From IMG/VR virus record IMGVR_UViG_3300045988_179183: a stretch of DNA of 64,000 nucleotides. One strand, written 5' to 3'. Shown here in pieces: positions 235 through 62,488 of the stretch. The notes beneath the pieces were generated by a model. That model made no database searches. It saw only the letters and a list, made by a program, of their open reading frames with translations, and was not told where the DNA came from. Position 1 is the first letter of the stretch; each line of letters opens with the position of its first letter. The DNA is from a virus. A program made the position numbers and the translations under genes.

Positions 235-2235
235 TTAATCCAATTTTATCTGTTTACGTATTTCCTCCAATAATTCCGGGTTGTCGGATAGTACTGTTTT
301 AACATTCACCTCTCCTTGACCCAGACTCGTTCCATTATAGGAGAACCAACTTCCGTTCTTCTTGATGATACCCTGCTCGATCGATAAATCTAATATTTCT
401 TGCATGATATCGATCCCCTTACCGAAAGCGATTGAAATCTCCGCCTGCTTAAACGGGGGTGCTATTTTGTTTTTTTTAACGGTGACCTTGCTCCGAATAG
501 CGGTGACATCGTCACCCTCTTTTTTATTACCCATCCTGCAAATCTCGATACGCTGGGATGCGTAAAATTTCATCGCGTTTCCTCCGGGTGTTGTGTTCGC
601 CGCACCCATAAATCCGATATTACTTCGGTATTGATTTATGAATATAACCAACGTCTTATTCTTCTTTGCCTTCTGCGCTATAAGGGGTAACTCCGCGCTC
701 ATCAACCGAGCGACTAATGCGATCACGGCATCACCGACCTCACCATCTATCCTCGCCTTGGGTACTAACGCGGCGATGGAGTCAAGGATAATTATACCAA
801 TATCCGGGCAATCCAACATCCTCCTCATGATGGAAAGGGCCATCTCTGCCGAATCTGCCTGACTTAACACAAACTTTTCCGGGCTCAAATCAACCCCGAG
901 TGCCCTCATATAATCAGGATCCATTGCTTGCTCGGTATCGATATAACCCGCCGAGCGACCCATATCCTGTACTTCCCTGCACGCGTGAATGGCGAGGGAA
1001 GTATTATGTGTTATAACATGATCCTCAAGCAAATATGAATGATCGGGTGAATCTATGCTAATACAAGTACATTCGCCTGCATCAACCTCATCTATTGCGA
1101 CAACCTTTCTATGACACCCCCTTCCTGTGAGAAGAGCGGCTTTACTATGCTTTCTTTTGCAACTAAATGGATTGAACGTCACCCTCAACGAAATAGAGTA
1201 ATAGGAAAAACCTTTCGTGTTATGACATAATTTAACCGGGGACGTATATCCACCTAAACTTTGAACAAGATAAATGATATCGTTTATAAGTTGAAGTGAT
1301 GCGCTTGTATATGATACAACACTTGCCGAAACGCAACCATCCGTATCCATTAATCCCGCCAACAGATCCCTTCTTTGCGAAATAGAACCGTTGAGATAGT
1401 TTTTTGGTATAAACTTATCGGACGAAGGAACTCGAATACCTAATCGATCAAGTTCAGAAATATATTCATTTTCACGACTATAAATATCCTTTACAATTCG
1501 ATATTGAGAACAATTTTTCTGATTTCTACAAACAGTTATCCTGTAACCATCATTTAATTCTAATTTAACTCGATCGATAATATCGGAATCAGTGTTTCCT
1601 ATCGCCATAGTGGGATAACAATGGAGGCATCCATCGCCAAGAAGAACCCCCAAAATATAAGGAGAGATAAAACAATCAATAGGTTCTCTCTCTAAAGGTT
1701 TGCATAAAGGAATCTCCCATCTATAATTAGGCTTTGTTATGCCCCTCCTATAATCACTCGGAACGCGATTTCTTAAAACGCCTTTTTCTATCATTGATTT
1801 AAGCGTTCTGGGTGCATATTTTCGAATATGAGGGTTACCCATATCTTTTGCGAACCAAATATGGTCCTCCGAGCATATTTTTTCAACACCATCAATAAAC
1901 CGAACCTTATATAATCGTTTTATTCCTTGAGGATAAACACCGGTTACAGGATAAAGGTTTCCATCCGACGCGTAAACCTTATCCCCTATTCTTAAACTCT
2001 CAATAGGCGTGAGACCTTGTTCCGTAAATATCTTTGTACCATTCTTTAGGGCTTTGCCACTCGATTCATGTCCGAATATCTCAACCAGCCTACCCAGTCC
2101 GTAACCACCACCTAGCGCTCTATCTAGAATCAACGAACCCGATGGCACTCTCTCAACATCTATGTAACTACCACATATTGCTTCCTTGCCGAACTCTTTC
2201 TCAATTCCGGCAATCATACTTTTTAAATCCATCAC
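235..2235 (-). CDS. recA: RecA/UvsX-family recombinase interrupted by an intein (666-aa precursor, 316-aa mature)
   Basis: The N-extein ends FGHESSGK and the C-extein starts TSLAIHA, which rebuilds the RecA P-loop GxESSGKT. The C-extein carries RecA core motifs (IIILDSIAALVP, NQYR..IG, TPGGNAMKFYAS). Confidence 0.9.
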   Translation of the reverse strand: MMDLKSMIAGIEKEFGKEAICGSYIDVERVPSGSLILDRALGGGYGLGRLVEIFGHESSGKALKNGTKIFTEQGLTPIESLRIGDKVYASDGNLYPVTGVYPQGIKRLYKVRFIDGVEKICSEDHIWFAKDMGNPHIRKYAPRTLKSMIEKGVLRNRVPSDYRRGITKPNYRWEIPLCKPLEREPIDCFISPYILGVLLGDGCLHCYPTMAIGNTDSDIIDRVKLELNDGYRITVCRNQKNCSQYRIVKDIYSRENEYISELDRLGIRVPSSDKFIPKNYLNGSISQRRDLLAGLMDTDGCVSASVVSYTSASLQLINDIIYLVQSLGGYTSPVKLCHNTKGFSYYSISLRVTFNPFSCKRKHSKAALLTGRGCHRKVVAIDEVDAGECTCISIDSPDHSYLLEDHVITHNTSLAIHACREVQDMGRSAGYIDTEQAMDPDYMRALGVDLSPEKFVLSQADSAEMALSIMRRMLDCPDIGIIILDSIAALVPKARIDGEVGDAVIALVARLMSAELPLIAQKAKKNKTLVIFINQYRSNIGFMGAANTTPGGNAMKFYASQRIEICRMGNKKEGDDVTAIRSKVTVKKNKIAPPFKQAEISIAFGKGIDIMQEILDLSIEQGIIKKNGSWFSYNGTSLGQGEVNVKTVLSDNPELLEEIRKQIKLD
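1003..2052 (-). mobile_element. Intein in the RecA P-loop (350 aa) with a LAGLIDADG homing-endonuclease domain; starts with Ala and has class-3-like features
   Basis: Codon-checked boundaries: GK|ALKNGTKIFTEQG at the start and EDHVITHN|T at the end. Block B reads SEDHIW. LAGLIDADG motifs are ILGVLLGDGCL and LLAGLMDTDGCV. The C-terminal region reads CTCISIDSPDHSYLL..VITHN. Confidence 0.85.
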
Positions 2236-5535: not shown

Positions 5536-7531
5536 TTACGTTAGTATCAACACCTCCGTGTTTTCATTCGCGTAAATAGCCATTTGTTGATTTCTCTCGT
5601 CCCAGTTTGTTCGACCGTTCATAAACAGGATCGTATCCTTACAGTTTTTCAAAATATTTTCGAACGATTCATATTCATTGGACCAGAAAACAACCGTTCG
5701 AAACTGGTAATTCTGCTCAAGCGTGATGATGGCGTAATCACCCTTTCGTCCAGTTTTTATTGCGATTTCATACACATAACCCCCAGCCGTTAAATTATAA
5801 CTTTTCGTTTCCAAGGGATCGTCCACTATTTCCGAAAAATCTTTGAAAGGATACTCCGAATCACCAACCATCTCCTTGAAATAATCCAAGTATAATTTTG
5901 AGTAATTGAAAAACGCCAAACCACACAATTTCTTCTGCCTCAAATTATGCCACCACTCTAGTTTCACCTTATCGGGATTCAACTCAAACACATCTTTTTC
6001 CTTATCGATTTTTACCTTATTAACGGTTCTGTATCGTTTTATAAGTTTTATCCTGTCTATAACGTTTGATATTGATTCTAGCTTATCGAAAGCACCACAT
6101 GAAATCAAATTTTCTATAACACTTTTATTAACGGCACTTCCTTTCTGTGAATGACGGTCTAAAAATTCATCAAAACCAAAGTAGGGGCCGTTCTCGGATC
6201 TTTCCTTCATGATCTCCGCTTGTGCCTTCTCGCCGACCTGTTTCACTGATGAGATTGACCACACCAAACTTTTATCAGTGAAATCTGTCTTGATCTTATC
6301 CGTCGATTCATTAATATCAGGGGGGGTCACCTTGATATTTCCTATTTCATTTATCTCGTGTAGATAAACGGGGAAATCATCATCATCAGCGTAGGAGAAC
6401 GCAACGGACCAGAAAGCTAACGGATAATTTACTTTTAACCACTGACACGCGTATCCTGTGTTTGCATACGCGACCGCGTGGGATTTATTGAACTGATAAT
6501 CAGCCATATTCTCAATTTCCTTCCATGTCTCTTCCGCGTATTTTTGATCAACACCGAAATTCTCGATATAATTTTTCAAAAATCTTTCCCTGAAGGGTTG
6601 AAGTTTCTCCACGTTCTTCTTACCAATCGCACGGCGTGCGCCATCCGCGTCAACAAGATTAAACCCTCCTAACACTTGGAACATTTTCATTGTCTGCTCC
6701 TGCCATATCATGATATACCGGCTACTTTGAAGTATTTCTCCCGCCCCTTTTCTAAATGATACTTCCCTCTCACCCTTTTTACGAAGGATATACTCGTTAT
6801 GGAAATTTCCCTCCATAACCCCCGGTCGATATAACCCAATACAGTTTACAAGCTCTGTTATGTTATCGGGCTTTAACATCTTACAATATCCGGTTAACCC
6901 TTTCGCGCCAAAATGAAATACATCACCATTCCACCCCCTTTGAAAATACGAGTAAACTTTCGGATCATCAAGAGGTAATTCATAGAGGTTGATTTCTTCA
7001 CCAGTATCATCTTTGATTAATTTCAATATATCACCGAACTTACTTAACTGCAAGATTCCCAGAATATCCTCTTTCAAAAAACCCGCGGTGTCAAGTTCAC
7101 CACCCTCCCACTCACTGATCAACATATCACCCTGCCGGCGAATCGGATTCCAATGATACATATCCTTTTCATCCGGGTAAATCATCATGGCACATGCGTG
7201 AATCGATTTCGCCTTAGGTTGACCCTGTATCAAGCCGACCATCTCGATGATCTCCGGGTTTCTGTTAATGAAATTCGCGACATCTTTTTTCTGACAGGCG
7301 ATTCTGAATAAATCATCAAAATCCTTCACACCATCTATTTTAGAAGTAAATGAGTTTACCTCTGCGACGGGGACACCTTTCAACCTACATAGATCCTTGA
7401 CGGCGGCCTTGACTTGAAGAGTCGTGTAGGTTCCCACGGAGCAAACTTGATCGGCACCGTAACGCTCCTCCATGTATCTTTTAACTTCCGGTCTTCTCGC
7501 CATCTCGAAATCAGTATCGATGTCCCTTAGT
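5536..7531 (-). CDS. dnaE: DNA polymerase III alpha (DnaE-type) replicase, 3' exon; the 5' limit is approximate
   Basis: In frame, upstream of the first ATG (7503) and with no start codon, the sequence reads ..RLRDIDTDFE-MARRPEVKRYMEERYGADQVCSVGTYTTLQVKAAVKDLCRLKG. This aligns with E. coli DnaE [51 protein letters not shown]. Downstream is the finger/beta-binding region (FNKSHAVAYA). Confidence 0.85.
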
Positions 7532-8520
7532 CTGGCAGCGAACCGTGCTTGATTCGCTGCCGCTTTTCTAATTTAATTGATTTAACTATATATTCCATTT
7601 CAAATTTTGTTTTATCTGTTTTACAAATCTAGATTTTTCAATAAAAGACATCACCTTTCTCCTTATATCTGTTTCTCTTAAATACACCTCCGTATATAAA
7701 GGAACCCATTTCCTTTCGAATAGCTTGCCTTTCTGAAGAAAAGTAAGTAATGTATCATGATTACCACTCGGTGATAATGTTTTTTGTGCGTCATAAGCAG
7801 ATAGAAATTTATGTACCTCTAAAGTATAAATATTTATCATCACAATCGGTTTCGCATTCGGATTAAGACTCCCTTTCGCAACACCCCGGTCTTTTCGGAT
7901 TACTGAGATATGATCCTTCATTTCCTGGGACCATTTATTCCCATAATTACCATTTTTCCCACCCACTCGTCTCGGCGGCTTAATACCGCCAATTTTTAAA
8001 TTTAGTGTTCGTCGATCTCTCACCCACTGATGATCAACTACACGTTTTTCCTGAATCAATGCATCATCTACGGTATTAAAATACAACAAATTCACTCTCT
8101 TAAACGCACCAACCCCGTACAATCTCACGCAATTACCTAATGGCATTGGTAAAGGGTCCTTGTAATCTTTTAAACCGGTGGAGTAATCCGTCTTGATTCC
8201 GCCACCAATATAAGAATCTTCCACTGTTTTTGATGAATGAACCCCAACATATACTTTTCCGTTTACCATACAGGTTGTTTTATACAAAATATTATAAAGG
8301 TTATTGTCACCCTTAAACGGATTCTTTTGTCCGTTCGAGCATTTTGCTAATATCTCCTGATCCGACACTAACGATTCTATCTCCATCTTTTAAATCTTGA
8401 GCTTTTACATCTAATTTTTCTCCCGATCTAAAAATACACACTTTATCATCAAAATCCAACTCTATATCTAAATTATTATCGAATGTGATTTTTACAACGT
8501 CCACTTCAACTTGTTGACCG
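7532..8520 (-). mobile_element. Probable group I intron carrying a GIY-YIG homing-endonuclease ORF, interrupting dnaE; boundaries are tentative
   Basis: The DnaE reading frame breaks after FERFLNKGR (R codon at 8523..8525). It resumes at RDIDTDFE (7504..7527), which has no start codon of its own. A perfect 9-bp stem (7534..7542 pairing with 7553..7561) lies just before the resumption point. An HEG ORF lies inside. One frame-preserving junction is ..CGT AT | A CTA AGG.., with U before the 5' splice site and G at the intron end. Confidence 0.55.
7586..8386 (-). CDS. GIY-YIG homing endonuclease (I-TevI/Seg-like)
   Basis: The GIY-YIG module reads NILYKTTCMVNGKVYVGVHS...YIGGG. NUMOD3-like linkers are GKNGNYGNKWSQEMKDHIS and GSLNPNAKPIVM. 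There is a C-terminal DNA-binding-like tail. The ORF lies between the two dnaE halves. Confidence 0.8.
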   Translation of the reverse strand: MEIESLVSDQEILAKCSNGQKNPFKGDNNLYNILYKTTCMVNGKVYVGVHSSKTVEDSYIGGGIKTDYSTGLKDYKDPLPMPLGNCVRLYGVGAFKRVNLLYFNTVDDALIQEKRVVDHQWVRDRRTLNLKIGGIKPPRRVGGKNGNYGNKWSQEMKDHISVIRKDRGVAKGSLNPNAKPIVMINIYTLEVHKFLSAYDAQKTLSPSGNHDTLLTFLQKGKLFERKWVPLYTEVYLRETDIRRKVMSFIEKSRFVKQIKQNLKWNI

Positions 8521-9935
8521 ATACGACCTTTATTCAGAAAACGTTCGAATAGCAAATCGTAATCAAACGGGTTAATGTGCGTCAGACCCAATAAATAGGC
8601 GACGAGGGAGCCACAAGCTGATCCACGGCCGAACCCTACGAGTATACCTTGACGTTTACACCATTGGGTGATATCCCAAAGTATCAAGAAATAATCAACA
8701 ACATCTCCGTATTTAATTACATCTATCTCAGTTTCAAGTCTATCAAGATACTTCTCTTGTTCATCAACATCACTTATCCCCATGCTATTAAACCCATCCG
8801 CGACCAAGGATATAAGCATATCAACTTTTGATCCATCATATTTCTTGAACTCCTCCTCGGTCATTTTATATTTAGGAAGATGACGTTGTGATAGATCGAC
8901 CTTGAAATTACTACACCTTTCAGCGATATCATTTGTGTTCTCGATCGCGAATCCGATGATATCAAGCATAATATCTTGGTCATTATCAGAGAATAACTCC
9001 CTAATCTCCATCAAATATTCTTCGTTACATTTGAAGTATTGATTTTTTGAAAAATCGTTACTTATACCCGCGGATGAATTCAACGCTTTTTTCAGATAGA
9101 AATATTCTTGGTCCAAATAATACGCATCACAGATATTTGTGGGCAACATGGAACTTGAGAAATATTCCTGAAGATTCAAAAGATATACCCTATCTCTTTC
9201 ATTTGAATCAAACTTAACTGAATCAAGTTGATAGTATGTGTTCATCAATTCTTTCGGCACATCTTTAAATTGCAGGCTCTTCGGGTCAATCACGATAATT
9301 AATCCCTCTCTCAATGACAGAAACTTTCCTTCATCGATCCTCACATTATTATCAACGTTAATTTCCTTGTTGATAGAAAGAAGGTTCATCCACCCTGTTT
9401 CATCCACGACGTAAACCTTCACATCGTACAGAAGATCTTTCTTTTGATTGAACACGGTAACGGTTTCACCGATCACCGGTTTCAAACCGTGTTTCTGGCA
9501 TTCCAACTGAAATTTAAGCACACCCGCAAGTGTGTTTTTCTCACAGATACCCAAAATACTCACACCGAAAAAATTCGCTTTTCGACACCAATCTCCATAA
9601 TCTCCGGTTCCGTTCAATAATTCAAACGGACCTCTCACTCCCAGAAATGATTCGGTCGGTAAATCACTATCAACCTTACCGATATATTTCAAGAGTTTCA
9701 ACTTCACTTTCGATTCATTACCCTTTCTCAAAGTGTAATACAGACGGCCGAACTTATAGATGTAATTATTCGCAGTGATGGGTGTTCCTATGTAATTAAA
9801 CCCTCGATCAAACAGAAGTCCGTCGACATTGGGCCCTGATAATTCATATGTATCACCATCCATTGTGATAATACCCAGGTCGGAAATATCATATATAAAT
9901 CCATTGCGATCGAGATACGATAACAGTTCTTTCAT
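8521..9935 (-). CDS. dnaE: DNA polymerase III alpha (DnaE-type) replicase, 5' exon; the ORF reads through into the intron as far as 8313
   Basis: The palm region YFLILWDITQWCKRQGILVGFGRGSACGSLVAYLLGLTHINPFDYDLLFERFLNKGR matches the DnaE consensus. An N-terminal PHP-like region is present but lacks the usual His ligands (FLGVRGPFELLNG where E. coli has HLRVHSDYS). Confidence 0.85.
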
Positions 9936-10644: not shown

Positions 10645-11448
10645 TTATTTACCAACGAATCCAGCAAAAAATCGGTACTTTTCAATATTAAATTTTATGT
10701 CATTCCATTGAGATTGTTGTACATCGATACCCACCATCTTATGAAGCATCACGGGAATTTTTTCTTCAAGTCCGCTATCCGTATATCTTACACCGTGTAA
10801 ACCATGAATAACTGGATTAGATGTATCGATACTTCTGATAAAGTGATACTTATCCTCGTTATATTGGCAAACTTCTTGCGGTAATACTGTGCCCAGTAAA
10901 TGCAACGGCTTTTCACAATCCATAACACCGTGATTGATGAGCTGGTCAATGAACATTTTTCTTCCTCTACAATATGCCTTCGATGTATTCTCATCAGCCG
11001 CGAGACTTAAATAAATGGGTAAGTTGAAAGGTAGCGCAACCATATCACAGCATTCGACCATGCATTTATAGCATTCGACAAGTTCATTCCAACTTATCCC
11101 CTGAACAACACCGATTGAATAGCTGCACGATATTTTCTCCCACGTTCTCGCCATTCTCATCGTTTCTTTCGCATTTCTCAAAACATCGGGTAAAACGTAA
11201 TAAGTTGGCTTCAGTGCCTTAATCCATGAACGAAATCTATTTGCGTCAAATGCCGACCCCAATTCGAACACTGAATTGTCAAGAATTACCTCGCGTCCCT
11301 TGTTAACAAGCGCATCCATGAAAAATTCGAAATAATCGCCACCTATATCGGGATCTTCAAACAAGTGAACAAGTGCGTAATCATAATCAGTCATCGATTG
11401 AACCTTGTTCATAATCGATAACGGTGCTTCATGCGCTATCTTAATCAT
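10645..11448 (-). CDS. Divergent TGT-fold (tRNA-guanine transglycosylase/DpdA-like) TIM-barrel protein; second paralogue
   Basis: Motifs occur in the TGT order: ILDNSVFE (cf. DSGGFQ), VLPDV (cf. LDEC), GVVQG (cf. IVQG), PLHLLG (cf. YLMGVG), SIDTSNP (cf. GIDMFDCV). It is adjacent to queC. Confidence 0.45.
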   Translation of the reverse strand: MIKIAHEAPLSIMNKVQSMTDYDYALVHLFEDPDIGGDYFEFFMDALVNKGREVILDNSVFELGSAFDANRFRSWIKALKPTYYVLPDVLRNAKETMRMARTWEKISCSYSIGVVQGISWNELVECYKCMVECCDMVALPFNLPIYLSLAADENTSKAYCRGRKMFIDQLINHGVMDCEKPLHLLGTVLPQEVCQYNEDKYHFIRSIDTSNPVIHGLHGVRYTDSGLEEKIPVMLHKMVGIDVQQSQWNDIKFNIEKYRFFAGFVGK

Positions 11449-13171
11449 TGTGTTGATATTTTATGGGATCCGTCATTCCGTTTAATTCAAACGCTTCGAG
11501 CCGCTCGGTACAATTATGCACCAAATATCCCTCACAAATAAATGAACCAGCACTAGTCTTAATATCATATACATGTGCCTCCTTAACTGGTTCATCTATT
11601 TTATTTACCACCACTTGGTCTAAAAGCCTTATTGAATTATATGTGCCTAACTTTTCAAGCATCGACGCACGTTTTCCCGCACCGTACTTTAATGTAATTA
11701 TGTACGGTCTTGTTACTCTCCAAGTTTGCATAAGGGTACCGCCCTCTTTAAAACCGGGCGTAACGGATTGCGACCTGTCACACTTAATCCCCAACAATGA
11801 TAATGCTTTATCGATTTGAATACACTTTTCTTTATTCACAATCACTGCTTGGCTTATAGAAAAACCGAATGATCCATTTGATTTATTATGACAAGCACAC
11901 CCATCAGCTATCAACATTCCGTTTAAATACCCGCGCAAATACTCAGGGTGTTCATTAAATTTTGTCTTCTCAAGAAACACAGGACCATAACCGCCACCAG
12001 CACGGTGCATGTTGGTATCCTCCCTGTAAGTGATTTTTACATCACATGGCTTGATATATTTATCATAAAGAGACCAAAATTCTTCCAATACATCGAACTC
12101 CTTTTGAAATGTATGAACACCCCGTGTGTCAATGGATCCATCACCATCAGCAAATCCACGTAAATAACCCAGGGCGAATTTTTCATCATCAACCTCTTTT
12201 CTTGTATTTGATACTGGCCAAAATTTCACCATATAAGTAGCATCCTTTCTCTTCATCTCCTCGTACTTTCTATATCTTGGCCTTAACTTCATATTTGAAG
12301 CATACACATAATGATCCTTCGTTAAAAGAAGACCCGCCATATCATATACCGGTTGAATACCATTATCAAACTTATCCAATACCTTCGCCACACAAATTTT
12401 CTTCGTGTTTTCATCCACGGACCACACTTCGTCTCCAATACAAATATCCTTAATTTGCTTCCATGTATTATCACTCATCAGTACTTTCTGCGATTCTTCT
12501 ATACACGACCCACACCTTCCACACGATCTTCCTTCTGGATCGGGATTATAGCACGTGTGAGTGTTACCCAGAACCAAATTAATTTCATAATCATTGAACC
12601 CGAGGATCGTCATCGCACGTAACCCTTCGGCAAGTACACCGCCCTTATCCATGTGATTGAACGGAGCTTCGTATCCCACTCTTTCACTACCCCAATTCGA
12701 TACTTTAAACGCGTGCTCACAAGCGATTCGAGATTCCTCGGATGTATCAGGATAACAGCAATGATCGCCGCTATGTAGGCCTAAAAACACATCAACATTA
12801 CTCTCCGTTTTATTCGCCCATGAAAGTGCCTTCCCATAAATGATAGCGGAAAAGATCACGTTTCTATTTTCAATAACCGTTGATTTCATATTTTCGGACG
12901 CGTAATGACCTTCCGGTATAGGTTCACCACCTACATGAAGGGACGAATTACTGTCACTGAAACAATCCCTCAGATCGATAATCTGGTGTGATAACTTAAA
13001 CCTCTTACCTTGCAAGAACTCAATATTTCTTTTCACCTTCTCCAATTCAACCTGATGCTTCTGACCGTATTGAAAAGAATAAGCCTTAACTTCGTAATCA
13101 TGAGCAAGTAAATACATGAGCAAGCACGTACTATCCAATCCGCCCGATAAACTTAAAATCGCCTTTTTCAT
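11441..13171 (-). CDS. queC: 7-cyano-7-deazaguanine (preQ0) synthase QueC interrupted by an intein (576-aa precursor, 245-aa mature)
   Basis: PP-loop MKKAILSLSGGLDSTC. The C-terminal Cys cluster SCGRCGS-[intein]-CTERLEAF rebuilds the QueC CxxCxxC..R motif. I prefer the start at 13171 (2 nt after the upstream stop) over the longer ORF start at 13228. Confidence 0.85.
   Translation of the reverse strand: MKKAILSLSGGLDSTCLLMYLLAHDYEVKAYSFQYGQKHQVELEKVKRNIEFLQGKRFKLSHQIIDLRDCFSDSNSSLHVGGEPIPEGHYASENMKSTVIENRNVIFSAIIYGKALSWANKTESNVDVFLGLHSGDHCCYPDTSEESRIACEHAFKVSNWGSERVGYEAPFNHMDKGGVLAEGLRAMTILGFNDYEINLVLGNTHTCYNPDPEGRSCGRCGSCIEESQKVLMSDNTWKQIKDICIGDEVWSVDENTKKICVAKVLDKFDNGIQPVYDMAGLLLTKDHYVYASNMKLRPRYRKYEEMKRKDATYMVKFWPVSNTRKEVDDEKFALGYLRGFADGDGSIDTRGVHTFQKEFDVLEEFWSLYDKYIKPCDVKITYREDTNMHRAGGGYGPVFLEKTKFNEHPEYLRGYLNGMLIADGCACHNKSNGSFGFSISQAVIVNKEKCIQIDKALSLLGIKCDRSQSVTPGFKEGGTLMQTWRVTRPYIITLKYGAGKRASMLEKLGTYNSIRLLDQVVVNKIDEPVKEAHVYDIKTSAGSFICEGYLVHNCTERLEAFELNGMTDPIKYQHND
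11513..12505 (-). mobile_element. Intein in QueC (331 aa), class-1-like, with a LAGLIDADG endonuclease
   Basis: Codon-checked boundaries: GS|CIEESQKVLM at the start and EGYLVHN|CTER at the end. Block B is LLLTKDHYVYA. LAGLIDADG motifs are LGYLRGFADGDGSI and LRGYLNGMLIADGCA. Block F is HVYDIKTSAGSFI. Confidence 0.85.
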
Positions 13172-13172
13172 T

Positions 13173-13757
13173 TTATAATCTGTAATTAAATTCCATAATA
13201 TCCAATACCTGGGAAACTCTTTCGTCAATACTTCCGCTCACATAGTGTATCCCTCGTGGTGCGAAGTCTTGTAACATACGCGCGTTTTTCTCAAATAAAC
13301 GATCGATTTCCTTTTGAAATACTTCATCAGTTGACCGAACTCCGTCGTCCACGATTTTAAACTCCGGCCTCAGTACAATGTGATGGCTGTAAAGGGGCTC
13401 TATATGAAATAGAAGTTGGGTGACCGTGTCAACCATTTCATCCCAGAGAGGCCTATCCTCGCTCGATGACCTGTCCCGGTTATACTCCGTGTAGCATAGA
13501 ACATCTAATAAACATCTATCGGAAATAATATGATCATGCGCTGACATCGCTGACTCGATAATTTCTTTCACATACGAAGTTGCGATCCAAAGTTGATCAT
13601 AAATACCCGCTTCCTTATTAATCTTTATGCCGCGATCATTACCTTTCCTTGAAGGAGATCCCATAAAGAGAGATCCCTTCAAACACTCCTCCTTTTTCAA
13701 CGCCTCAATTAACGTTGTCTTACCTGTGCATTGAGCACCTGAAATTGATATAATCAT
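13173..13757 (-). CDS. P-loop NTPase, NadR/AAA_28-like putative nucleoside or nucleotide kinase
   Basis: Walker A ISGAQCTGKTTL. Kinase-like segments SDRCLLDVLCY and VDDGVRSTDEVFQ resemble the NadR ribosylnicotinamide-kinase domain. Confidence 0.45.
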   Translation of the reverse strand: MIISISGAQCTGKTTLIEALKKEECLKGSLFMGSPSRKGNDRGIKINKEAGIYDQLWIATSYVKEIIESAMSAHDHIISDRCLLDVLCYTEYNRDRSSSEDRPLWDEMVDTVTQLLFHIEPLYSHHIVLRPEFKIVDDGVRSTDEVFQKEIDRLFEKNARMLQDFAPRGIHYVSGSIDERVSQVLDIMEFNYRL

Positions 13758-13814: not shown

Positions 13815-13845
13815 TCAACAAAAACAGAGATTATTTTCTCTGTTT
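13815..13845 (-). terminator. Hairpin plus U-run, putative intrinsic terminator after the dCTP-deaminase-fold gene
   Basis: The minus strand reads AAACAGAG-aaaataat-CTCTGTTT followed by TTGTTG. The stem overlaps the stop codon at 13831. Confidence 0.4.
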
Positions 13846-14331
13846 GTCGTTTTGATATTGGCCGTTATATAAATCTTCCTCGTTTACATCCGTGCAATCA
13901 TAACAGTAGAACTGGGCCACGCGGGCGTTCTTCTCGATCGTGATTGTGTGAAACACTTCCATGAACGTACCCATCGAATCAGTGTGAAAACCCGCGTCGA
14001 AAATCGATGAATAAATCCAAGCACCGCACCGGGCAACTGAACTTCGCTGTACTATCCGACCCATTTTGTTTTTGGGTATGTTACAACCTTCAATGAAATC
14101 AACCATGTAATACCCCGGAGGTAGATGCCAAACTTCGTTTCCATTTATATCAGGAAAACATCGAACTTCTTCGTATGAGGGTAACATTGTTTTGCCCTCG
14201 CGGGGTATGAATCCATGACCTTTCACAACACTTACCTTTCTCAACCGAATATCACATCCGTGCTGGGTTAGATTCTCTTCTAAATGATTAACGATAACAC
14301 CTTCTCCGTGTAATTCCTTTCCGTTTAACAT
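13831..14331 (-). CDS. dCTP deaminase/dUTPase-fold protein
   Basis: GRIVQRSSVARCGAWI...FDAGFHTDSMGTFMEV...ARVAQF matches the dCTP-deaminase family pattern (grSS.aR.G, dPGf.G..tlEl, aQl). Confidence 0.6.
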   Translation of the reverse strand: MLNGKELHGEGVIVNHLEENLTQHGCDIRLRKVSVVKGHGFIPREGKTMLPSYEEVRCFPDINGNEVWHLPPGYYMVDFIEGCNIPKNKMGRIVQRSSVARCGAWIYSSIFDAGFHTDSMGTFMEVFHTITIEKNARVAQFYCYDCTDVNEEDLYNGQYQNDKQRK

Positions 14332-14355: not shown

Positions 14356-15252
14356 CTATTCAATTATTTCATCATTCTGTTTTTCATACAAGAACTCTCT
14401 CGCTCTCGCGTCAGCGAACGCGTACAAAACTATATCTCGACTCAGATAATGATACGGTATCCTGCCAGATAGATCGGGGCCGGCACTCCCATACGCATCT
14501 TGCCCCGGTACGAGGGTTCCCTCTGCCACTTTCTTCAAAAAATTATTACGTGCCTTCTCAATATTGATGGCGTACCTGAAAATAGAGAAATCGACCGAAT
14601 CCGGCATGACAAACCGGGTTGTTTCAACGTTTGAACATCCCAGGAGATGAACGTATTTCCCTTTATCGCGAGCGTACTTCATCATCTTTCCCAGTTCATC
14701 CCTGTACACATGCCATTCCCTACCCTGAGCCAGACCTCCTATCGAAAGGATGGGGTAGAGGGGCGAGTCACAGAGATCCTTCCAGTATTGAAAACCCTGA
14801 TGCATTTTAAATACCGGTGCGGGATAGTACCCTGTTATTTCCTTGATCTCGTCTCTCAGATAATTTTTAGGTGATAACAGGTTATCATCTTTTCTAAAAT
14901 ACTCGTTATCAAGTTCAAAACACATTTTAAACGGATACATTTTAAGAAACCGAAGAAACTTTTTCTTCATTTTCTCGCATTCATTCCAAAAATCAGGGTT
15001 GTTTTCACCCAGTTTCTTCTGTTTTTTGAATAATGTGAAACCACCGGAATCCAACCATATTCGATCGCCTCCAACAACGGTTTGAATAAATTTAATATAC
15101 CCGGCGGTCATATCAACGGTTGAAATTAGATAGTCGTTATCATGTGCAAGCAAAAGTTTTTCCAAGACCTTATCGGACCTACAACTACACACCAGACCAC
15201 CACCCAATCCCATCACAAGCCTTTTTTTAGGTTTTTCAAACATATCAATCAA
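14356..15252 (-). CDS. dpdA: DpdA-like DNA (7-deazaguanine) transglycosylase, TGT family
   Basis: TGT motifs: WLDSGGFTLF, FELDNEY, LSIGGLAQG, YVHLLGCS, PDSVDFSIF. It is embedded among the preQ0 synthesis genes. An alternative start lies at 15243. Confidence 0.7.
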   Translation of the reverse strand: MIDMFEKPKKRLVMGLGGGLVCSCRSDKVLEKLLLAHDNDYLISTVDMTAGYIKFIQTVVGGDRIWLDSGGFTLFKKQKKLGENNPDFWNECEKMKKKFLRFLKMYPFKMCFELDNEYFRKDDNLLSPKNYLRDEIKEITGYYPAPVFKMHQGFQYWKDLCDSPLYPILSIGGLAQGREWHVYRDELGKMMKYARDKGKYVHLLGCSNVETTRFVMPDSVDFSIFRYAINIEKARNNFLKKVAEGTLVPGQDAYGSAGPDLSGRIPYHYLSRDIVLYAFADARAREFLYEKQNDEIIE

Positions 15253-15685: not shown

Positions 15686-16327
15686 TTATTTTCTCCCGAG
15701 TTTATAAATCTGTATCGCTCTTAAAAACTCATCTCGGCTATTCATCTCATTTGTTAAAAACGCCCCCGAACAATAGTGGGTTGTCATCGTACTATTATCT
15801 TCCGCGCCCCGCATACTCACGCACATATGTTCCGCCTCAATATAAACTGCGATACCCAGCACTGTGTCGCCGAATATGTTAACCAAATAATCATGAATCT
15901 GACGAGTTAATTGTTCTTGTAATTGAGGCCGTTTGGCGAACCAGTGAACTATTCTGTTTAGTTTCGAAAGACCAATAACTTGGCCACTTTCCTTGCTGAT
16001 ATACGCCAAACTACAGAATCCTGTGAACGGAAGTAAATGGTGTGAACACAATGAATTCACCTCGATCCCATGTTCAATTACCATACCTGAGTATCCTGAA
16101 CTTGGGAATACCGCCAATTTCGGAGGTGCAGAATACGCACCTGACGTGATTTCATTGACAAACATTTTCGCAACCCTGTACGGTGTTTTTATCATGTTAG
16201 GGTCATTCTTCCAATCATACCCCAGGGCCTCCAAGAACTTACCGTACGCCTCGGTGGCCCTTGCCAACATCTCGTTTCTATCATCATCGGAAAGAACGAC
16301 GTTCCCTCCTGCCATTATTTTTTTCAT
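15686..16327 (-). CDS. folE: GTP cyclohydrolase I (FolE)
   Basis: Active-site motifs SLCSHHLLPF and EAEHMCVSMRG, plus QERLT-like QEQLTRQI. Confidence 0.9.
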   Translation of the reverse strand: MKKIMAGGNVVLSDDDRNEMLARATEAYGKFLEALGYDWKNDPNMIKTPYRVAKMFVNEITSGAYSAPPKLAVFPSSGYSGMVIEHGIEVNSLCSHHLLPFTGFCSLAYISKESGQVIGLSKLNRIVHWFAKRPQLQEQLTRQIHDYLVNIFGDTVLGIAVYIEAEHMCVSMRGAEDNSTMTTHYCSGAFLTNEMNSRDEFLRAIQIYKLGRK

Positions 16328-16352: not shown

Positions 16353-17117
16353 CTAAGCATCTCTCTTATCTCCGAAGATTATTATATGTAAGCGGTCAGA
16401 GTAGAAGTAGCCCAAATCTATACATCTCTGTGCCAACCATTTTCTTTTCTCTGCCAGTTTCTCCTCGGTATCCCCCTCCGGCATCAGATAGACTATTACA
16501 GGCCAGAAGGGGTCCAGTTTAGATACCTCCTTCTTAATTTTCCGAACTTGTCTCTCGACTTCCTTTATATCATCCTCCGAGGACACCACATATTTCAACT
16601 GCGAGAATTTCGATTCCATGATCCATGACACTATAGCGGGGATATTCTCCCTCGTTTTCGCGTGTTTCTCCGCGAATTCGCCCGAACTCGGAATTGAACT
16701 CTTCAATTTAGGTGAGATTGATACGACGTCTACGTACGTATCCTCATCCAGTACATCACCTCTCGCGATGGTTCCGTTCGTTTCCATGCTCACACTCAAC
16801 TTATGTCTCCGACCTATCTCGATCAACGATCTCAACAATTCGGGATGAAGGGTCGGTTCTCCCCCGGTAATAAGCATGCATTTTATCTGAGGGTTCATGA
16901 TTATGATATCGACGACATCGTTCAATGAATATTTACCCTTTTCCGGGTTCCACGAGCTGTAGGCCGTGTCACATATACTCCCTTTAAAAGTACATCTCAG
17001 GTTACACCCAGATGTTCTTATAAGAATATGGGGGACCCCCACCTTCATACCCTCTCCCTGTATACAGGTGTGCAAATCAATAATCGGTTGAATTTCTGAA
17101 TAATCCATTTTTAACAT
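16353..17117 (-). CDS. queE: 7-carboxy-7-deazaguanine synthase QueE (radical SAM)
   Basis: IQGEGMKVGVPHILIRTSGCNLRCTFKGSICDTAYS, followed by GGEPTLH. The Cys spacing is Cx3Cx6C rather than Cx3Cx2C. Confidence 0.8.
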   Translation of the reverse strand: MLKMDYSEIQPIIDLHTCIQGEGMKVGVPHILIRTSGCNLRCTFKGSICDTAYSSWNPEKGKYSLNDVVDIIIMNPQIKCMLITGGEPTLHPELLRSLIEIGRRHKLSVSMETNGTIARGDVLDEDTYVDVVSISPKLKSSIPSSGEFAEKHAKTRENIPAIVSWIMESKFSQLKYVVSSEDDIKEVERQVRKIKKEVSKLDPFWPVIVYLMPEGDTEEKLAEKRKWLAQRCIDLGYFYSDRLHIIIFGDKRDA

Positions 17118-17344
17118 AAATAAGCGTTATACAATTCTATAAACTCGGCGAGATCCAGTTCTGAGAATCTCCGTTCTTTCGCAATCTCTTTAATAAGATC
17201 AAGTTGATTTTCATAAAGCTCGTCCGCCATCTCACCATACCCGCTCACCCTTAAATCAATCACAGGCAATGAAAGTTCAAATGCCAGACTTTCATCAAAC
17301 CCATAGCGATCAACAAGATCATTTAGTTCCTTTTTCGTTATCAT
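17111..17344 (-). CDS. Hypothetical small acidic protein (77 aa)
   Basis: ORF overlapping both neighbours by a few nt, suggesting translational coupling between queD and queE. Confidence 0.5.
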   Translation of the reverse strand: MITKKELNDLVDRYGFDESLAFELSLPVIDLRVSGYGEMADELYENQLDLIKEIAKERRFSELDLAEFIELYNAYLC

Positions 17345-17916
17345 AACTTCACTTGTAGTTCAACCTTTGGGTTCACGAATTTAATCCCTCGAAAAAGTTT
17401 ATGATAAATCTCAGTTTTTGCCAGTGAAGGGCTAACTTCTATTTCTTCGGGATACATTTCCAAGTATCTATCATAATCATTTCGATCCGATTCGGCATAA
17501 CCAGTATCTGTTTCATGAACTCGCACTGATTGCACAACCACGTTACCCTCACCATTGTTAAATTCTGTTTTTTCCAATATCGATTCAAAACAAGCGAAAA
17601 ACATGGATGAGAGTAATTCAGCGGAGGGATTGCAAGGTAAAATTATCCACCTATCATTCATCGCCTGTATAAAATTTTTGTAAACCTCGTTATCCTTCGC
17701 CCACAATAAATGAGTATGATCGAATAAATCAACGACTTCTTTAAAATTACCAAGAAGACCGAAATCGACGACCATCCCTGCGTTATCCAAACGATCCGAG
17801 GTCAAAAATAACTCAACTTTATAGCTGTGTCCGTGAATTGAATGTGAACATCTGTCCGATGTACAATTTCTCACAATATGGCTTCCCTCAAACTTAAACA
17901 ATTTTCTAATTATCAT
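17341..17916 (-). CDS. queD: 6-carboxy-5,6,7,8-tetrahydropterin synthase QueD (PTPS family), long form
   Basis: FKFEGSHIV..CSHSIHGHSYKVELFL and VRVHETDTGYAE match PTPS/QueD signatures. Confidence 0.8.
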   Translation of the reverse strand: MIIRKLFKFEGSHIVRNCTSDRCSHSIHGHSYKVELFLTSDRLDNAGMVVDFGLLGNFKEVVDLFDHTHLLWAKDNEVYKNFIQAMNDRWIILPCNPSAELLSSMFFACFESILEKTEFNNGEGNVVVQSVRVHETDTGYAESDRNDYDRYLEMYPEEIEVSPSLAKTEIYHKLFRGIKFVNPKVELQVKL

Positions 17917-60745: not shown

Positions 60746-62488
60746 TTAATGTAATTGTAATCTATATTTACTTTGTTTCAACGTGGCGAGGAAATCGTCG
60801 ATCCAAGAAATCTCTCCGTTATAATCAGGGTCTCCATCAAGTATCGCTCTTAACTCTTCCGTTCTTTCAAATAGAAGGTCAACCAATTCGATTGGATCAT
60901 TCACATCAATCTGTTCACCAACAATCTCACCATCACCGAATCTTCCAAACTCTGACTGACCTGCTTCCGCGAATTTATCCTCGAAATCAGAAACTTCATA
61001 CGAGAGTTCATCCAGATAAGCATGTTTTGAATTATCCTCCTCGCTCCAATGAATGTTCTTGATCCTCGTTTTCACGCCTTCGATAAAATTGAGATAATCT
61101 CTGAACAATGATTTATCCCCGGGATCTGATTTCTCTAATTCAGAAATATCGATTCCCGTCATTCGAAGTTTCCCTTCTGCCTTAATCTCTTCAACCATTG
61201 ATTTGAAAAGTTCCGCGTGCTCAGAATCATCAAAACTAACGGTAACAGAAAAACCTGACTTCTCAACACGATCATCTTTTGTTTCACCATCCAATGATTC
61301 TCTCGCTATCACCCCGGCCTGTTCAACACCCATTCCTTTCTCAACATCTTTTTCACGCCAACTTTCAGGCAATTCGCTTTCAAGACCCAATTCCTTCGCT
61401 CTTTTCTTAATCCAAGACTTCACCTCATTTTTAGGCGTTGAAGATGCACCAACCAATCTGATGGCATCTTTGAGGTCTTGACTGTTTCTTATAGGGTACT
61501 TTCCATCGGGCATCGCTTCTCCTTCTTTTGCAAGTTTACCCCTCTCCTTCTCGGAGAAATATGTTTTATTCCTCGCCTTCTCAACCGCTTCCTTGAAAAA
61601 CGAAGGAGTGATCTTTCCTTCCTTCAACGCTTTCGCGAGTATCTCAATCGTTTCAGGTCCCTTTGATTCTTTCTCTTCCATGCCGGTAAGTTTTTTAATA
61701 TTATCTTTCATATTGAAAATAAAATCATATTTATCTAAATCTTTAAGTTCAATCCACTCAACCCCGTCGTGTTCAGTGCTATCGACCATCACTGAAGGTT
61801 GCTTATCATCAGTGAACGCCCTGTAATAGTTTATTGAACTATCACGATCCTGATAAAAACCGATAGGCGAAGGCTGAAAATTCAATTTTAACCCCGTCTC
61901 TTCCTTCAATTCGCGTTCAGCTGCATCACGGTGACTCTCACCGTAATCAACATGACCTCCCGGGATACACCATTCACCCCCTTCATCGGACTTACCTTCC
62001 TGTATTCTATGTAAAATTAGAAGTCGGCCATCGCCATCAAAAACAAGAACATCCGAGTATTCAACAGGACCTTCCTTGCCTTTTTGAATCAACTTATTAA
62101 ATGTGTCCATTGAAATACTTCCTGATTTGAAAAGTTTTTTCGATTCAAAATATCTGTCAACGTTCTCACATTCTTCCATAATCGATTCATCCTTTCTTAA
62201 TTGATCCATCTCTTTCTCAATTTTCATTTTCGATTTGATCAGATCATGTACATTCTGTTTATGATAAATCATAAACTCGTTGAACTTTGATAGTCGCTTT
62301 TCCTGTTCAATAATATCGCCCGAGATACTCAAATCTTCAACAATTGACTTATTCAATCTGAATGAATCCGCGAGTTCTTCTCCTTGTATCGAAATAACGT
62401 CCAAGCTTTTTAGTAGTTCAATATAACGGGCTACCTTCGCCTCGTCACTTTCATTCCGTTGTCCCAGTATTTTTTTTAACCAACCCAT
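60746..62488 (-). CDS. Multidomain protein: coiled coil + Nudix hydrolase + conserved phage motif + Dps/ferritin-like C-terminal region
   Basis: Nudix box GGHVDYGESHRDAAERELKEETGL. The C-terminal IKNIHWSEEDNSKHAYLDELSYEVSDFEDKFAEAGQSEFG...ISWIDDFLATLKQSKYRLQ resembles Dps (HWNV.G..F..LH...D..AER...LGG ... eK..WML). Confidence 0.6.
   Translation of the reverse strand: MGWLKKILGQRNESDEAKVARYIELLKSLDVISIQGEELADSFRLNKSIVEDLSISGDIIEQEKRLSKFNEFMIYHKQNVHDLIKSKMKIEKEMDQLRKDESIMEECENVDRYFESKKLFKSGSISMDTFNKLIQKGKEGPVEYSDVLVFDGDGRLLILHRIQEGKSDEGGEWCIPGGHVDYGESHRDAAERELKEETGLKLNFQPSPIGFYQDRDSSINYYRAFTDDKQPSVMVDSTEHDGVEWIELKDLDKYDFIFNMKDNIKKLTGMEEKESKGPETIEILAKALKEGKITPSFFKEAVEKARNKTYFSEKERGKLAKEGEAMPDGKYPIRNSQDLKDAIRLVGASSTPKNEVKSWIKKRAKELGLESELPESWREKDVEKGMGVEQAGVIARESLDGETKDDRVEKSGFSVTVSFDDSEHAELFKSMVEEIKAEGKLRMTGIDISELEKSDPGDKSLFRDYLNFIEGVKTRIKNIHWSEEDNSKHAYLDELSYEVSDFEDKFAEAGQSEFGRFGDGEIVGEQIDVNDPIELVDLLFERTEELRAILDGDPDYNGEISWIDDFLATLKQSKYRLQLH

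Follow-up and report, generated by a model that had tools for sequence, protein, structure and literature searches.

The gene at positions 10645 to 11448 of IMG/VR virus record IMGVR_UViG_3300045988_179183 very probably encodes a guanine/7-deazaguanine transglycosylase of the DpdA3 subfamily, as judged from sequence similarity and a predicted structure. We analyzed a 64,000-nucleotide stretch of this record, referred to here as the window. In the reading that we favor, the 267-amino-acid product is a stand-alone enzyme that would act on the deoxynucleotide pool, and a second protein with the fold of tRNA-guanine transglycosylase (TGT), 298 amino acids long and encoded nearby, would act together with a ParB-like partner at the DNA level. 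We put the probability of this reading as a whole at roughly 0.45.

The subfamily assignment comes from homologues in cultured phages. A tblastn search with the 267-amino-acid protein against 50,697 phage records matched 19 of them, 4 from the Flavobacterium immuto group and 15 from Campylobacter phages. In the four immuto-group phages, the protein, annotated as "DNA guanine transglycosylase, DpdA," showed 43% identity with an alignment that covered 98% of the length (gp206 of immuto_2-6A; E = 2e-57). Fourteen Campylobacter phages of the CP220 group were 37.5 to 38.6% identical (38% for CP220 gp056), and the fifteenth, CC_R7, was 26.7% identical. PHROG 19058, for which no function is annotated, was the sole family match (E = 2e-46). 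In a Foldseek comparison of the predicted structure with BFVD, the second-best match was M4SLA5 of Cellulophaga phage phiST (259 amino acids; TM scores, 0.83 and 0.85; root mean square deviation, 2.9; E = 1.2e-17), and annotated phage "queuine tRNA-ribosyltransferases" ranked below it. From the organism and the length, we infer that M4SLA5 is CGPG_00065. The immuto and CP220 proteins and phiST CGPG_00065 are the proteins for which Cui, Hutinet et al. named the DpdA3 subfamily in 2023 (PMC10516641); the gene itself is therefore of a known kind. An earlier interpretation made from the letters alone (here, the sequence-only reading) had described a second, divergent TGT-fold paralogue. The TGT fold stands, but the paralogue is not an undescribed one, as it belongs to DpdA3 (PMC10516641). 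Like the reference members, it has about 260 residues and the same motifs, with 38 to 43% identity to two of them and a TM score of 0.83 to the phiST protein, and its gene likewise lies among FolE/QueD/QueE(/QueC) genes with a P-loop kinase adjoining. Here, queC overlaps the DpdA3 gene, and folE, queE, and queD lie within 7 kb on the same strand. What sets the window apart from the reference DpdA3 phages is the second TGT-fold gene, which tblastn did not find there, with its ParB-like partner.

According to the paper that named the subfamily, DpdA3 is the only transglycosylase in phages with 100% guanine replacement, which is documented there for immuto and, as relayed from separate work, for CP220 (PMC10516641). 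The same study could not make DpdA3 modify plasmid DNA in Escherichia coli and demonstrated no DpdA3 activity; the tested DNA-level DpdAs reached at most ~32% modification, and infected cells were reported to contain dADG as a free nucleoside (PMC10516641). A literature search turned up no subsequent work on the mechanism of DpdA3.

Positions 10645 to 11448 hold a single ORF (open reading frame), which runs from an ATG on the minus strand; the plus strand is riddled with stop codons. The start of this ORF and the end of queC share 8 nucleotides (AATGATTAA), which points to translational coupling of the two genes. All five TGT motifs listed in the sequence-only reading were found, in the order that it gave: ILDNSVFE at residue 55, VLPDV at 85, GVVQG at 113, PLHLLG at 181, and SIDTSNP at 206. 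In an alignment with 47 relatives (44 to 73% identity), D57, N58, E62, P87, D88, Q116, G117, H183 to G186, and D208 to P212 were identical in 47 of 47, so that both catalytic-type aspartate positions, which had been called retained, proved invariant. Relatives at about 26% identity still carry D57, N58, E62, P87, D88, G117, H183, G186, D208, and T209. We propose that D57, D88, Q116, and D208 are the catalytic and base-binding residues. The zinc-binding subdomain of TGT (CxCxxC...H) is missing: the protein stops 59 residues past D208, and C126 is the sole invariant cysteine of the family, which has no CxCxxC motif. A metagenomic protein search with the 267-amino-acid protein returned 1798 relatives, and an exhaustive profile search of public data yielded 3411 family clusters at 50% identity, 449 of them with E ≤ 1e-30. 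Net charge was tried as a proxy for DNA binding and discarded: the acidic character of DpdA3 (median pI, 5.35) is shared by phage 9g DpdA1 (5.6) and E. coli TGT (6.0).

We then took a census of the genes encoded within 4 kb of DpdA3 at 83 loci. A P-loop kinase of the AAA_28 type was present at 63 of the 83, directly downstream of DpdA3 at 54, and QueF-like proteins were also encoded at 63. FolE (61 loci) and a PurN-like formyltransferase (60 loci) were nearly as frequent, followed by a MazG-like pyrophosphohydrolase (31 loci), a small phosphoribosyltransferase (30 loci), and a dCTP-deaminase/dUTPase-fold protein (28 loci). The most constant neighbor of DpdA3 in other phages is the P-loop kinase. 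The AAA_28 kinase adjoins DpdA3 in Campylobacter phages (CP220 and CC_R7) and in Flavobacterium phages. In Bacillus phage BSTP12 and Weizmannia phage Youna2, the corresponding place is taken by a P-loop protein. A DNA polymerase gene often comes next. CP220 has an extra HD-domain/kinase fusion just upstream. The DpdA1 cluster of phage 9g contains no kinase. DpdA3 is also found fused to neighbors of this kind, as dUTPase-DpdA3 on one contig and as DpdA3-PurN-like formyltransferase in two clusters.

Several further observations concern these loci. The fusion proteins comprise an N-terminal dUTPase (P0028), a C-terminal PurN-like formyltransferase resembling DpdN (P0284 and P0367), a NUMOD3 endonuclease motif (P0244), and DUF3310 (P0381). 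The phosphoribosyltransferase is about 135 residues long (for example, 7864..8268 of locus L066 and immuto gp211, 6843..7238 of L001) and could serve in recycling of released guanine or in synthesis of a 7-deazaguanine ribonucleotide. BSTP12 (L142, 5896..6684) and Youna2 (L143, 4935..5705) carry distant DpdA3-like genes, 24 to 26% identical to immuto DpdA3, which come after QueC/QueD/QueE/FolE and the P-loop protein and immediately precede DNA polymerase I. In BSTP12, the gene bears the label NadR; in related Bacillus phages, the features at the matching position are called polynucleotide kinase, integrase, or hypothetical. Phages of the BSTP12/Youna2 type probably also modify guanine.

The 298-amino-acid protein is the less characterized of the two TGT-fold gene products. 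The sequence-only reading had treated its gene as the standard DpdA-like one, a view that we do not share: the protein matched nothing in Pfam, NCBIfam, or PADLOC and has one match among cultured phages. Its motifs (LDSGGF, ELDNE, HQGF, GGLAQG, HLLGC, and VDFS) are nevertheless the more TGT-like of the two sets, and it matches PHROG 887, "queuine tRNA-ribosyltransferase" (E = 1.6e-10). In a Foldseek search with its AlphaFold2 model (mean predicted local distance difference test [pLDDT] score, 93.4), TGTs came first but weakly (E = 2e-4; query TM score [TMq], 0.45). By hhalign, its profile aligned with phage 9g DpdA1 over 135 columns, from LDSGGF to HLLG (E = 1.5e-4; 51% probability), and gave no alignment with E. 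coli TGT or the actinophage DpdAs. The strong divergence between the two window proteins that had been noted was evident here as well, as BLASTP produced no match between them and hhalign of the two families aligned the HLLG motif alone, at 7% probability. Against the phage collection, tblastn with the 298-amino-acid protein matched only CC_R7, where the homologue is a "hypothetical protein" of 47% identity; CP220 and immuto were unmatched.

The gene before it encodes a 145-residue protein that matches ParB_N (E = 4e-8) and carries GNTRFKA, an instance of the GxxRxxA nucleotide-binding motif, at G60 to A66; its stop codon abuts or overlaps the start of the 298-amino-acid gene. In CC_R7, a ParB-like "DNA binding protein" gene likewise precedes the homologue. 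We collected 55 loci of the 298-amino-acid family from IMG/VR, or 56 with CC_R7. A ParB-like gene lies immediately upstream in 46 of the 56, and a DpdA3-like gene lies within 10 kb in 42 of the 55 IMG/VR loci. Of the 13 exceptions without a nearby DpdA3-like gene, 8 match an extra-copy lineage (~50% identity to the query), and 4 of these 8 are on contigs that also hold a first copy. The family keeps D68, D115, and D221. The ParB-coupled pair is thus an accessory module that some of the DpdA3 phages carry, and in the 2019 and 2023 phage papers we found neither the pair nor phage ParB partners mentioned.

Two features of this family deserve separate mention. Some contigs carry two 298-amino-acid copies, either ~15 kb apart or in tandem (L114/L119, L110/L121, L112/L123, and L115/L125; L097 to L100). 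The second copy has no ParB-like gene, and together with the DpdA3-like gene, these contigs hold three TGT-fold genes. Campylobacter phage CC_R7 (PQ092953) contains both modules, the ParB-like gene and 298-amino-acid homologue at 1499..2744 of L003 and QueC, the DpdA3-like gene, the AAA_28 kinase, and DNA polymerase at 7363..9344 of L004. All of its key genes are annotated as hypothetical; being cultured, it is an obvious experimental model.

How the two modules might divide the work can be sketched from this gene context. The FolE-QueD-QueE-QueC cluster would make the base, and DpdA3 would install it by TGT chemistry, with D208 as the nucleophile on C1' and D57 and D88 handling the base. In the first module, DpdA3, the P-loop kinase, and the dUTPase-fold protein would remodel the deoxynucleotide pool before replication: the dUTPase-fold protein would convert dGTP to dGMP, DpdA3 would exchange guanine for 7-cyano-7-deazaguanine (preQ0) on a deoxynucleotide or deoxynucleoside, and the kinase would rephosphorylate the 7-deaza deoxynucleotide, which the phage polymerase would then incorporate, giving near-complete replacement. 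In the second module, the ParB-like NTPase and the 298-amino-acid enzyme would act on duplex DNA, like bacterial DpdA/DpdB, and convert the guanines that escaped the first. Because DpdA3 is consistently flanked by a P-loop kinase and deoxynucleoside triphosphate (dNTP) pyrophosphatases, we infer a pre-replicative route; if bases were exchanged only after replication, a kinase would have nothing to contribute. A dNTP pyrophosphatase, a base-altering enzyme, and a kinase together form the signature of pre-replicative replacement, known from T4 and the 2-aminoadenine phages, and such a route would be expected to end in complete replacement. The 100% replacement, the failed plasmid modification, and the free dADG also suggest that DpdA3 works at the nucleotide level. 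For the ParB-like and 298-amino-acid pair, the 46 of 56 loci with a ParB-like gene upstream, the GxxRxxA motif, the DpdB precedent, the ParB-like and DpdA pairs of actinophages, and the hhalign match to 9g DpdA1 would, by analogy, count toward action at the DNA level. Among the possibilities that the sequence-only reading had raised, the gene context favors different substrates or contexts for the two enzymes and action on a nucleotide rather than DNA, while its option of a tRNA-acting enzyme gained no support.

Judged from the gene context, the pool-level role of DpdA3 comes close to an even chance without reaching it. Several points weigh against it and against the wider reading. To our knowledge, no member of the TGT superfamily acts on a free nucleotide. 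Phages often encode kinases, dUTPases, and MazG proteins, the dUTPase-fold protein could be nothing more than a dUTPase, and the dUTPase-DpdA3 fusion is known from a single contig. For the second module, neither the 298-amino-acid protein nor the ParB-like protein matched a DpdA or DpdB model of PADLOC or NCBIfam at E ≤ 1, and the likeness of the pair to DpdA/DpdB is architectural only. Finally, in the sole paper to name DpdA3, the base is proposed to enter DNA after replication (PMC10516641).

That published view is the strongest alternative, and we regard it as a serious, if less probable, contender. It would make DpdA3 an efficient post-replicative DNA transglycosylase that flips out and replaces each guanine, and the 298-amino-acid protein with its ParB-like partner a second DNA transglycosylase for another sequence context or another base (e.g., 7-carboxy-7-deazaguanine [CDG] or ADG versus preQ0). 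The homologous enzymes all act on polynucleotides, and two base preferences are conceivable given the promiscuity of DpdA2 of phage VH7D, which accepts CDG, preQ0, and preQ1 (PMC10516641). However, a DNA-level DpdA3 leaves unexplained its tight, lineage-independent linkage to a P-loop kinase and dNTP pyrophosphatases, the gene fusions, the restriction of 100% replacement to DpdA3 phages, and the unsuccessful attempts at plasmid modification in E. coli; moreover, among these enzymes DpdA3 is the smallest, with no extra domain. The boldest form of the pool-level reading we consider doubtful. In it, DpdA3 would be the first TGT-fold enzyme whose base exchange takes place on a free deoxynucleotide or deoxynucleoside, supplying a 7-deaza-dGTP pool for complete guanine replacement before replication; in a subset of these phages, the present one and CC_R7 among them, ParB-powered patching of residual guanines in DNA would complete a two-tier system.

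Two TGT-fold genes in one deazaguanine cluster had been called nonstandard, and we agree that this is not the usual picture. One explanation offered for it was a heteromeric transglycosylase, with the 267- and 298-amino-acid proteins paired like eukaryotic QTRT1/QTRT2. Both proteins have a TGT fold, and the 298-amino-acid family occurs almost exclusively with a DpdA3-like gene (in the 42 of 55 IMG/VR loci and in CC_R7). The reverse does not hold: when co-occurrence was scored within 10-kb flanks at the 80 best DpdA3 loci, the 298-amino-acid family was present at just 7, all close relatives of the window, and the other 73 lacked it; the fully modified phages CP220 and immuto gave no tblastn match to it. 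A TGT-type heterodimer is improbable because most DpdA3 phages do without the 298-amino-acid family. Gene spacing also varies and is about 75 kb in CC_R7, where the DpdA3-like gene lies between queC and the AAA_28 kinase; the constant partner of the 298-amino-acid gene is the ParB-like gene, and some relatives hold two copies of the 298-amino-acid family. Furthermore, every DpdA3-like protein that co-occurs with the 298-amino-acid family keeps D57, D88, and D208, so that both families retain all three aspartates, unlike a noncatalytic subunit. The likeness to QTRT1/QTRT2 ends at the presence of two TGT-fold proteins in one system; QTRT2 is noncatalytic and obligately paired, whereas here the aspartates are present in both proteins and DpdA3 usually occurs alone. 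We thus regard two independent catalytic enzymes as probable, with DpdA3 as a stand-alone enzyme and not a silent partner of the 298-amino-acid protein.

The TGT fold of the 267-amino-acid protein holds in the predicted structure. AlphaFold2, run on the alignment of 47 relatives, gave an alternating strand/helix (TIM) barrel with a pLDDT of 94.3 and a predicted TM score of 0.91, in which D57, D88, and D208 are placed at or just past the C-terminal ends of strands 54 to 57, 83 to 85, and 204 to 209. The structure prediction and Foldseek search proposed in the sequence-only reading put the model closest to TGTs: ranks 1 to 8 in the PDB were all TGTs (E = 2.5e-8 to 9e-5), led by human QTRT1 (7nq4_A; E = 2.5e-8; TMq, 0.65) and then Zymomonas TGT, ahead of generic TIM barrels, which begin at rank 9 with E ≥ 5e-4. 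By hhalign against E. coli TGT, GVVQG pairs with GIIQG and KPLHLLG with KPRYLMG, while the DpdA3 profile gave no alignment with phage 9g DpdA1. The Pfam TGT family (PF01702) was matched below threshold in 16 of the 47 relatives (best E, 0.0065). The 267-amino-acid protein itself matched nothing in Pfam (the PF01702 gathering threshold was not reached), NCBIfam, or PADLOC, and PDB sequence searches with it and with the profiles of both families returned no TGT and nothing relevant. These sequence-level negatives and the TIM barrels from rank 9 onward are what a glycosidase, aldolase, or similar non-TGT barrel mimicking the motifs would predict, but that explanation is very improbable, given the eight best PDB matches, the phage DpdAs that BFVD lists after the DpdA3 prototype, the motif-by-motif alignment to E. 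coli TGT, the weak Pfam TGT matches in a third of the relatives, and the position of the gene among those for preQ0 biosynthesis in phages of which dozens are unrelated.

Comparison with other systems shows where the second module has precedents. Bacterial DpdA requires the ParB-like ATPase DpdB (PMC10164549), and the 298-amino-acid and ParB-like pair likewise combines a TGT-like gene with a neighboring ParB-fold NTPase that has a nucleotide-binding motif. The two differ in that the ParB-like protein here, at 145 residues, is the N-terminal domain alone, whereas the DpdB monomer adds a C-terminal alpha-helical domain (PMC10164549); in addition, the window has no DpdC to DpdK genes and no match to the PADLOC or NCBIfam models of that system. 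Pairs of ParB-like and DpdA genes also occur in Rosebush-type (Rosebush/Lephleur gp1-gp2) and Finch (gp210-211) actinophages, in the same ParB-then-DpdA order and with QueC/D/E/FolE after them; the 298-amino-acid family, however, has no BLAST-level similarity to the actinophage DpdAs or to 9g DpdA1. The 9g-type and actinophage systems have a single transglycosylase and partial modification, with 28% dPreQ0 in Rosebush DNA. Pre-replicative replacement is exemplified by T4 (dCTPase, dCMP hydroxymethylase, and dNMP kinase) and by the S-2L type (MazZ/DatZ/PurZ). By analogy with these, the DpdA3 phages would share the clustering of a pyrophosphatase, a base-altering enzyme, and a kinase with replication genes, as well as complete replacement; they would differ in that the base-altering enzyme would be a TGT-fold base exchanger, for which a mononucleotide substrate has no precedent.

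Table 1 lists the genes of the cluster. The window, with 39.7% G+C, derives from a tailed phage, as its genes for tail sheath, baseplate wedge, and major head proteins show, and its minus strand holds 51 of the 53 ORFs of at least 140 amino acids. No homologue of QueF, a formyltransferase, an amidotransferase, MazG, or a phosphoribosyltransferase was found in the 64 kb. As the window lacks the first three of these, the installed base is expected to be preQ0 or its amide, ADG.

TABLE 1 Genes of the 7-deazaguanine cluster in the window and their predicted functions
Feature	Positions	Strand	Basis or remark
Predicted DpdA3-subfamily transglycosylase, 267 aa	10645..11448	minus	Homology, AlphaFold2/Foldseek, motifs
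queC (7-cyano-7-deazaguanine synthase), intein interrupted	11441..13171	minus	
Intein, 331 aa, LAGLIDADG endonuclease domain	11513..12505	minus	Inside queC
P-loop kinase (AAA_28; PHROG "thymidylate kinase")	13173..13757	minus	
dCTP deaminase/dUTPase-fold protein	13831..14331	minus	Proposed dNTP pyrophosphatase
Second TGT-fold protein, 298 aa (295 aa from ATG 15243)	14356..15252	minus	Separate family, closest to DpdA1
ParB N-terminal-domain protein, 145 aa	15245..15682	minus	ParB_N, GxxRxxA; proposed NTPase partner, DpdB analogue
folE (GTP cyclohydrolase I), first step of preQ0 synthesis	15686..16327	minus	Homology to FolE in related loci
queE (7-carboxy-7-deazaguanine synthase, radical SAM)	16353..17117	minus	Homology to QueE in related loci
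queD (6-carboxytetrahydropterin synthase)	17341..17916	minus	Homology to QueD in related loci

The queC gene likely starts at ATG 13171, the listed ORF extending to TTG 13228. Its intein sits in the CGxCxxC motif, and splicing restores CGRCGS|CTER. In the close relatives L008 and L009, the spacing from queC to DpdA3 is ~790 nucleotides instead of ~1780, and it therefore seems that some strains carry the intein whereas others lack it. Other genes of the window also appear to be interrupted. By sequence reading, a DnaE-type polymerase III alpha subunit is apparently split (5536..9935, minus strand) into ORFs at 8313..9935 and 5536..7503 by a 266-residue ORF resembling a GIY-YIG homing endonuclease (7586..8386); the same ORF stands elsewhere in L008 (13063..13863) and may be mobile. 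A 666-residue ORF (235..2235, minus strand) matches a UvsX-like recombinase PHROG in three separate stretches, and its N-terminal half also matches terminase and helicase-type PHROGs; it may be an interrupted or fused gene. In the structural-gene region, a 580-residue protein (60746..62488, minus strand) has a NUDIX hydrolase domain at about residues 96 to 269 and is a candidate nucleotide pyrophosphatase.

What appears to be new here is the recurrent association of DpdA3 with a ParB-coupled, DpdA1-like family and the strong nucleotide-metabolism context of DpdA3, neither of which is described in the papers that we searched. If the pool-level role is not confirmed, the window merely adds another DpdA3 gene. 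DpdA3 phages are the only phages known to replace guanine completely with a 7-deazaguanine, and the kinase, pyrophosphatase, and polymerase neighbors raise the prospect that past assays may have offered the enzyme DNA where a deoxynucleotide was called for. The ParB-coupled second module offers a natural experiment that separates pool-level from DNA-level modification, and CC_R7 carries both. If true, the pool-level reading would provide an enzymatic route to 7-deaza-dGTP analogues.

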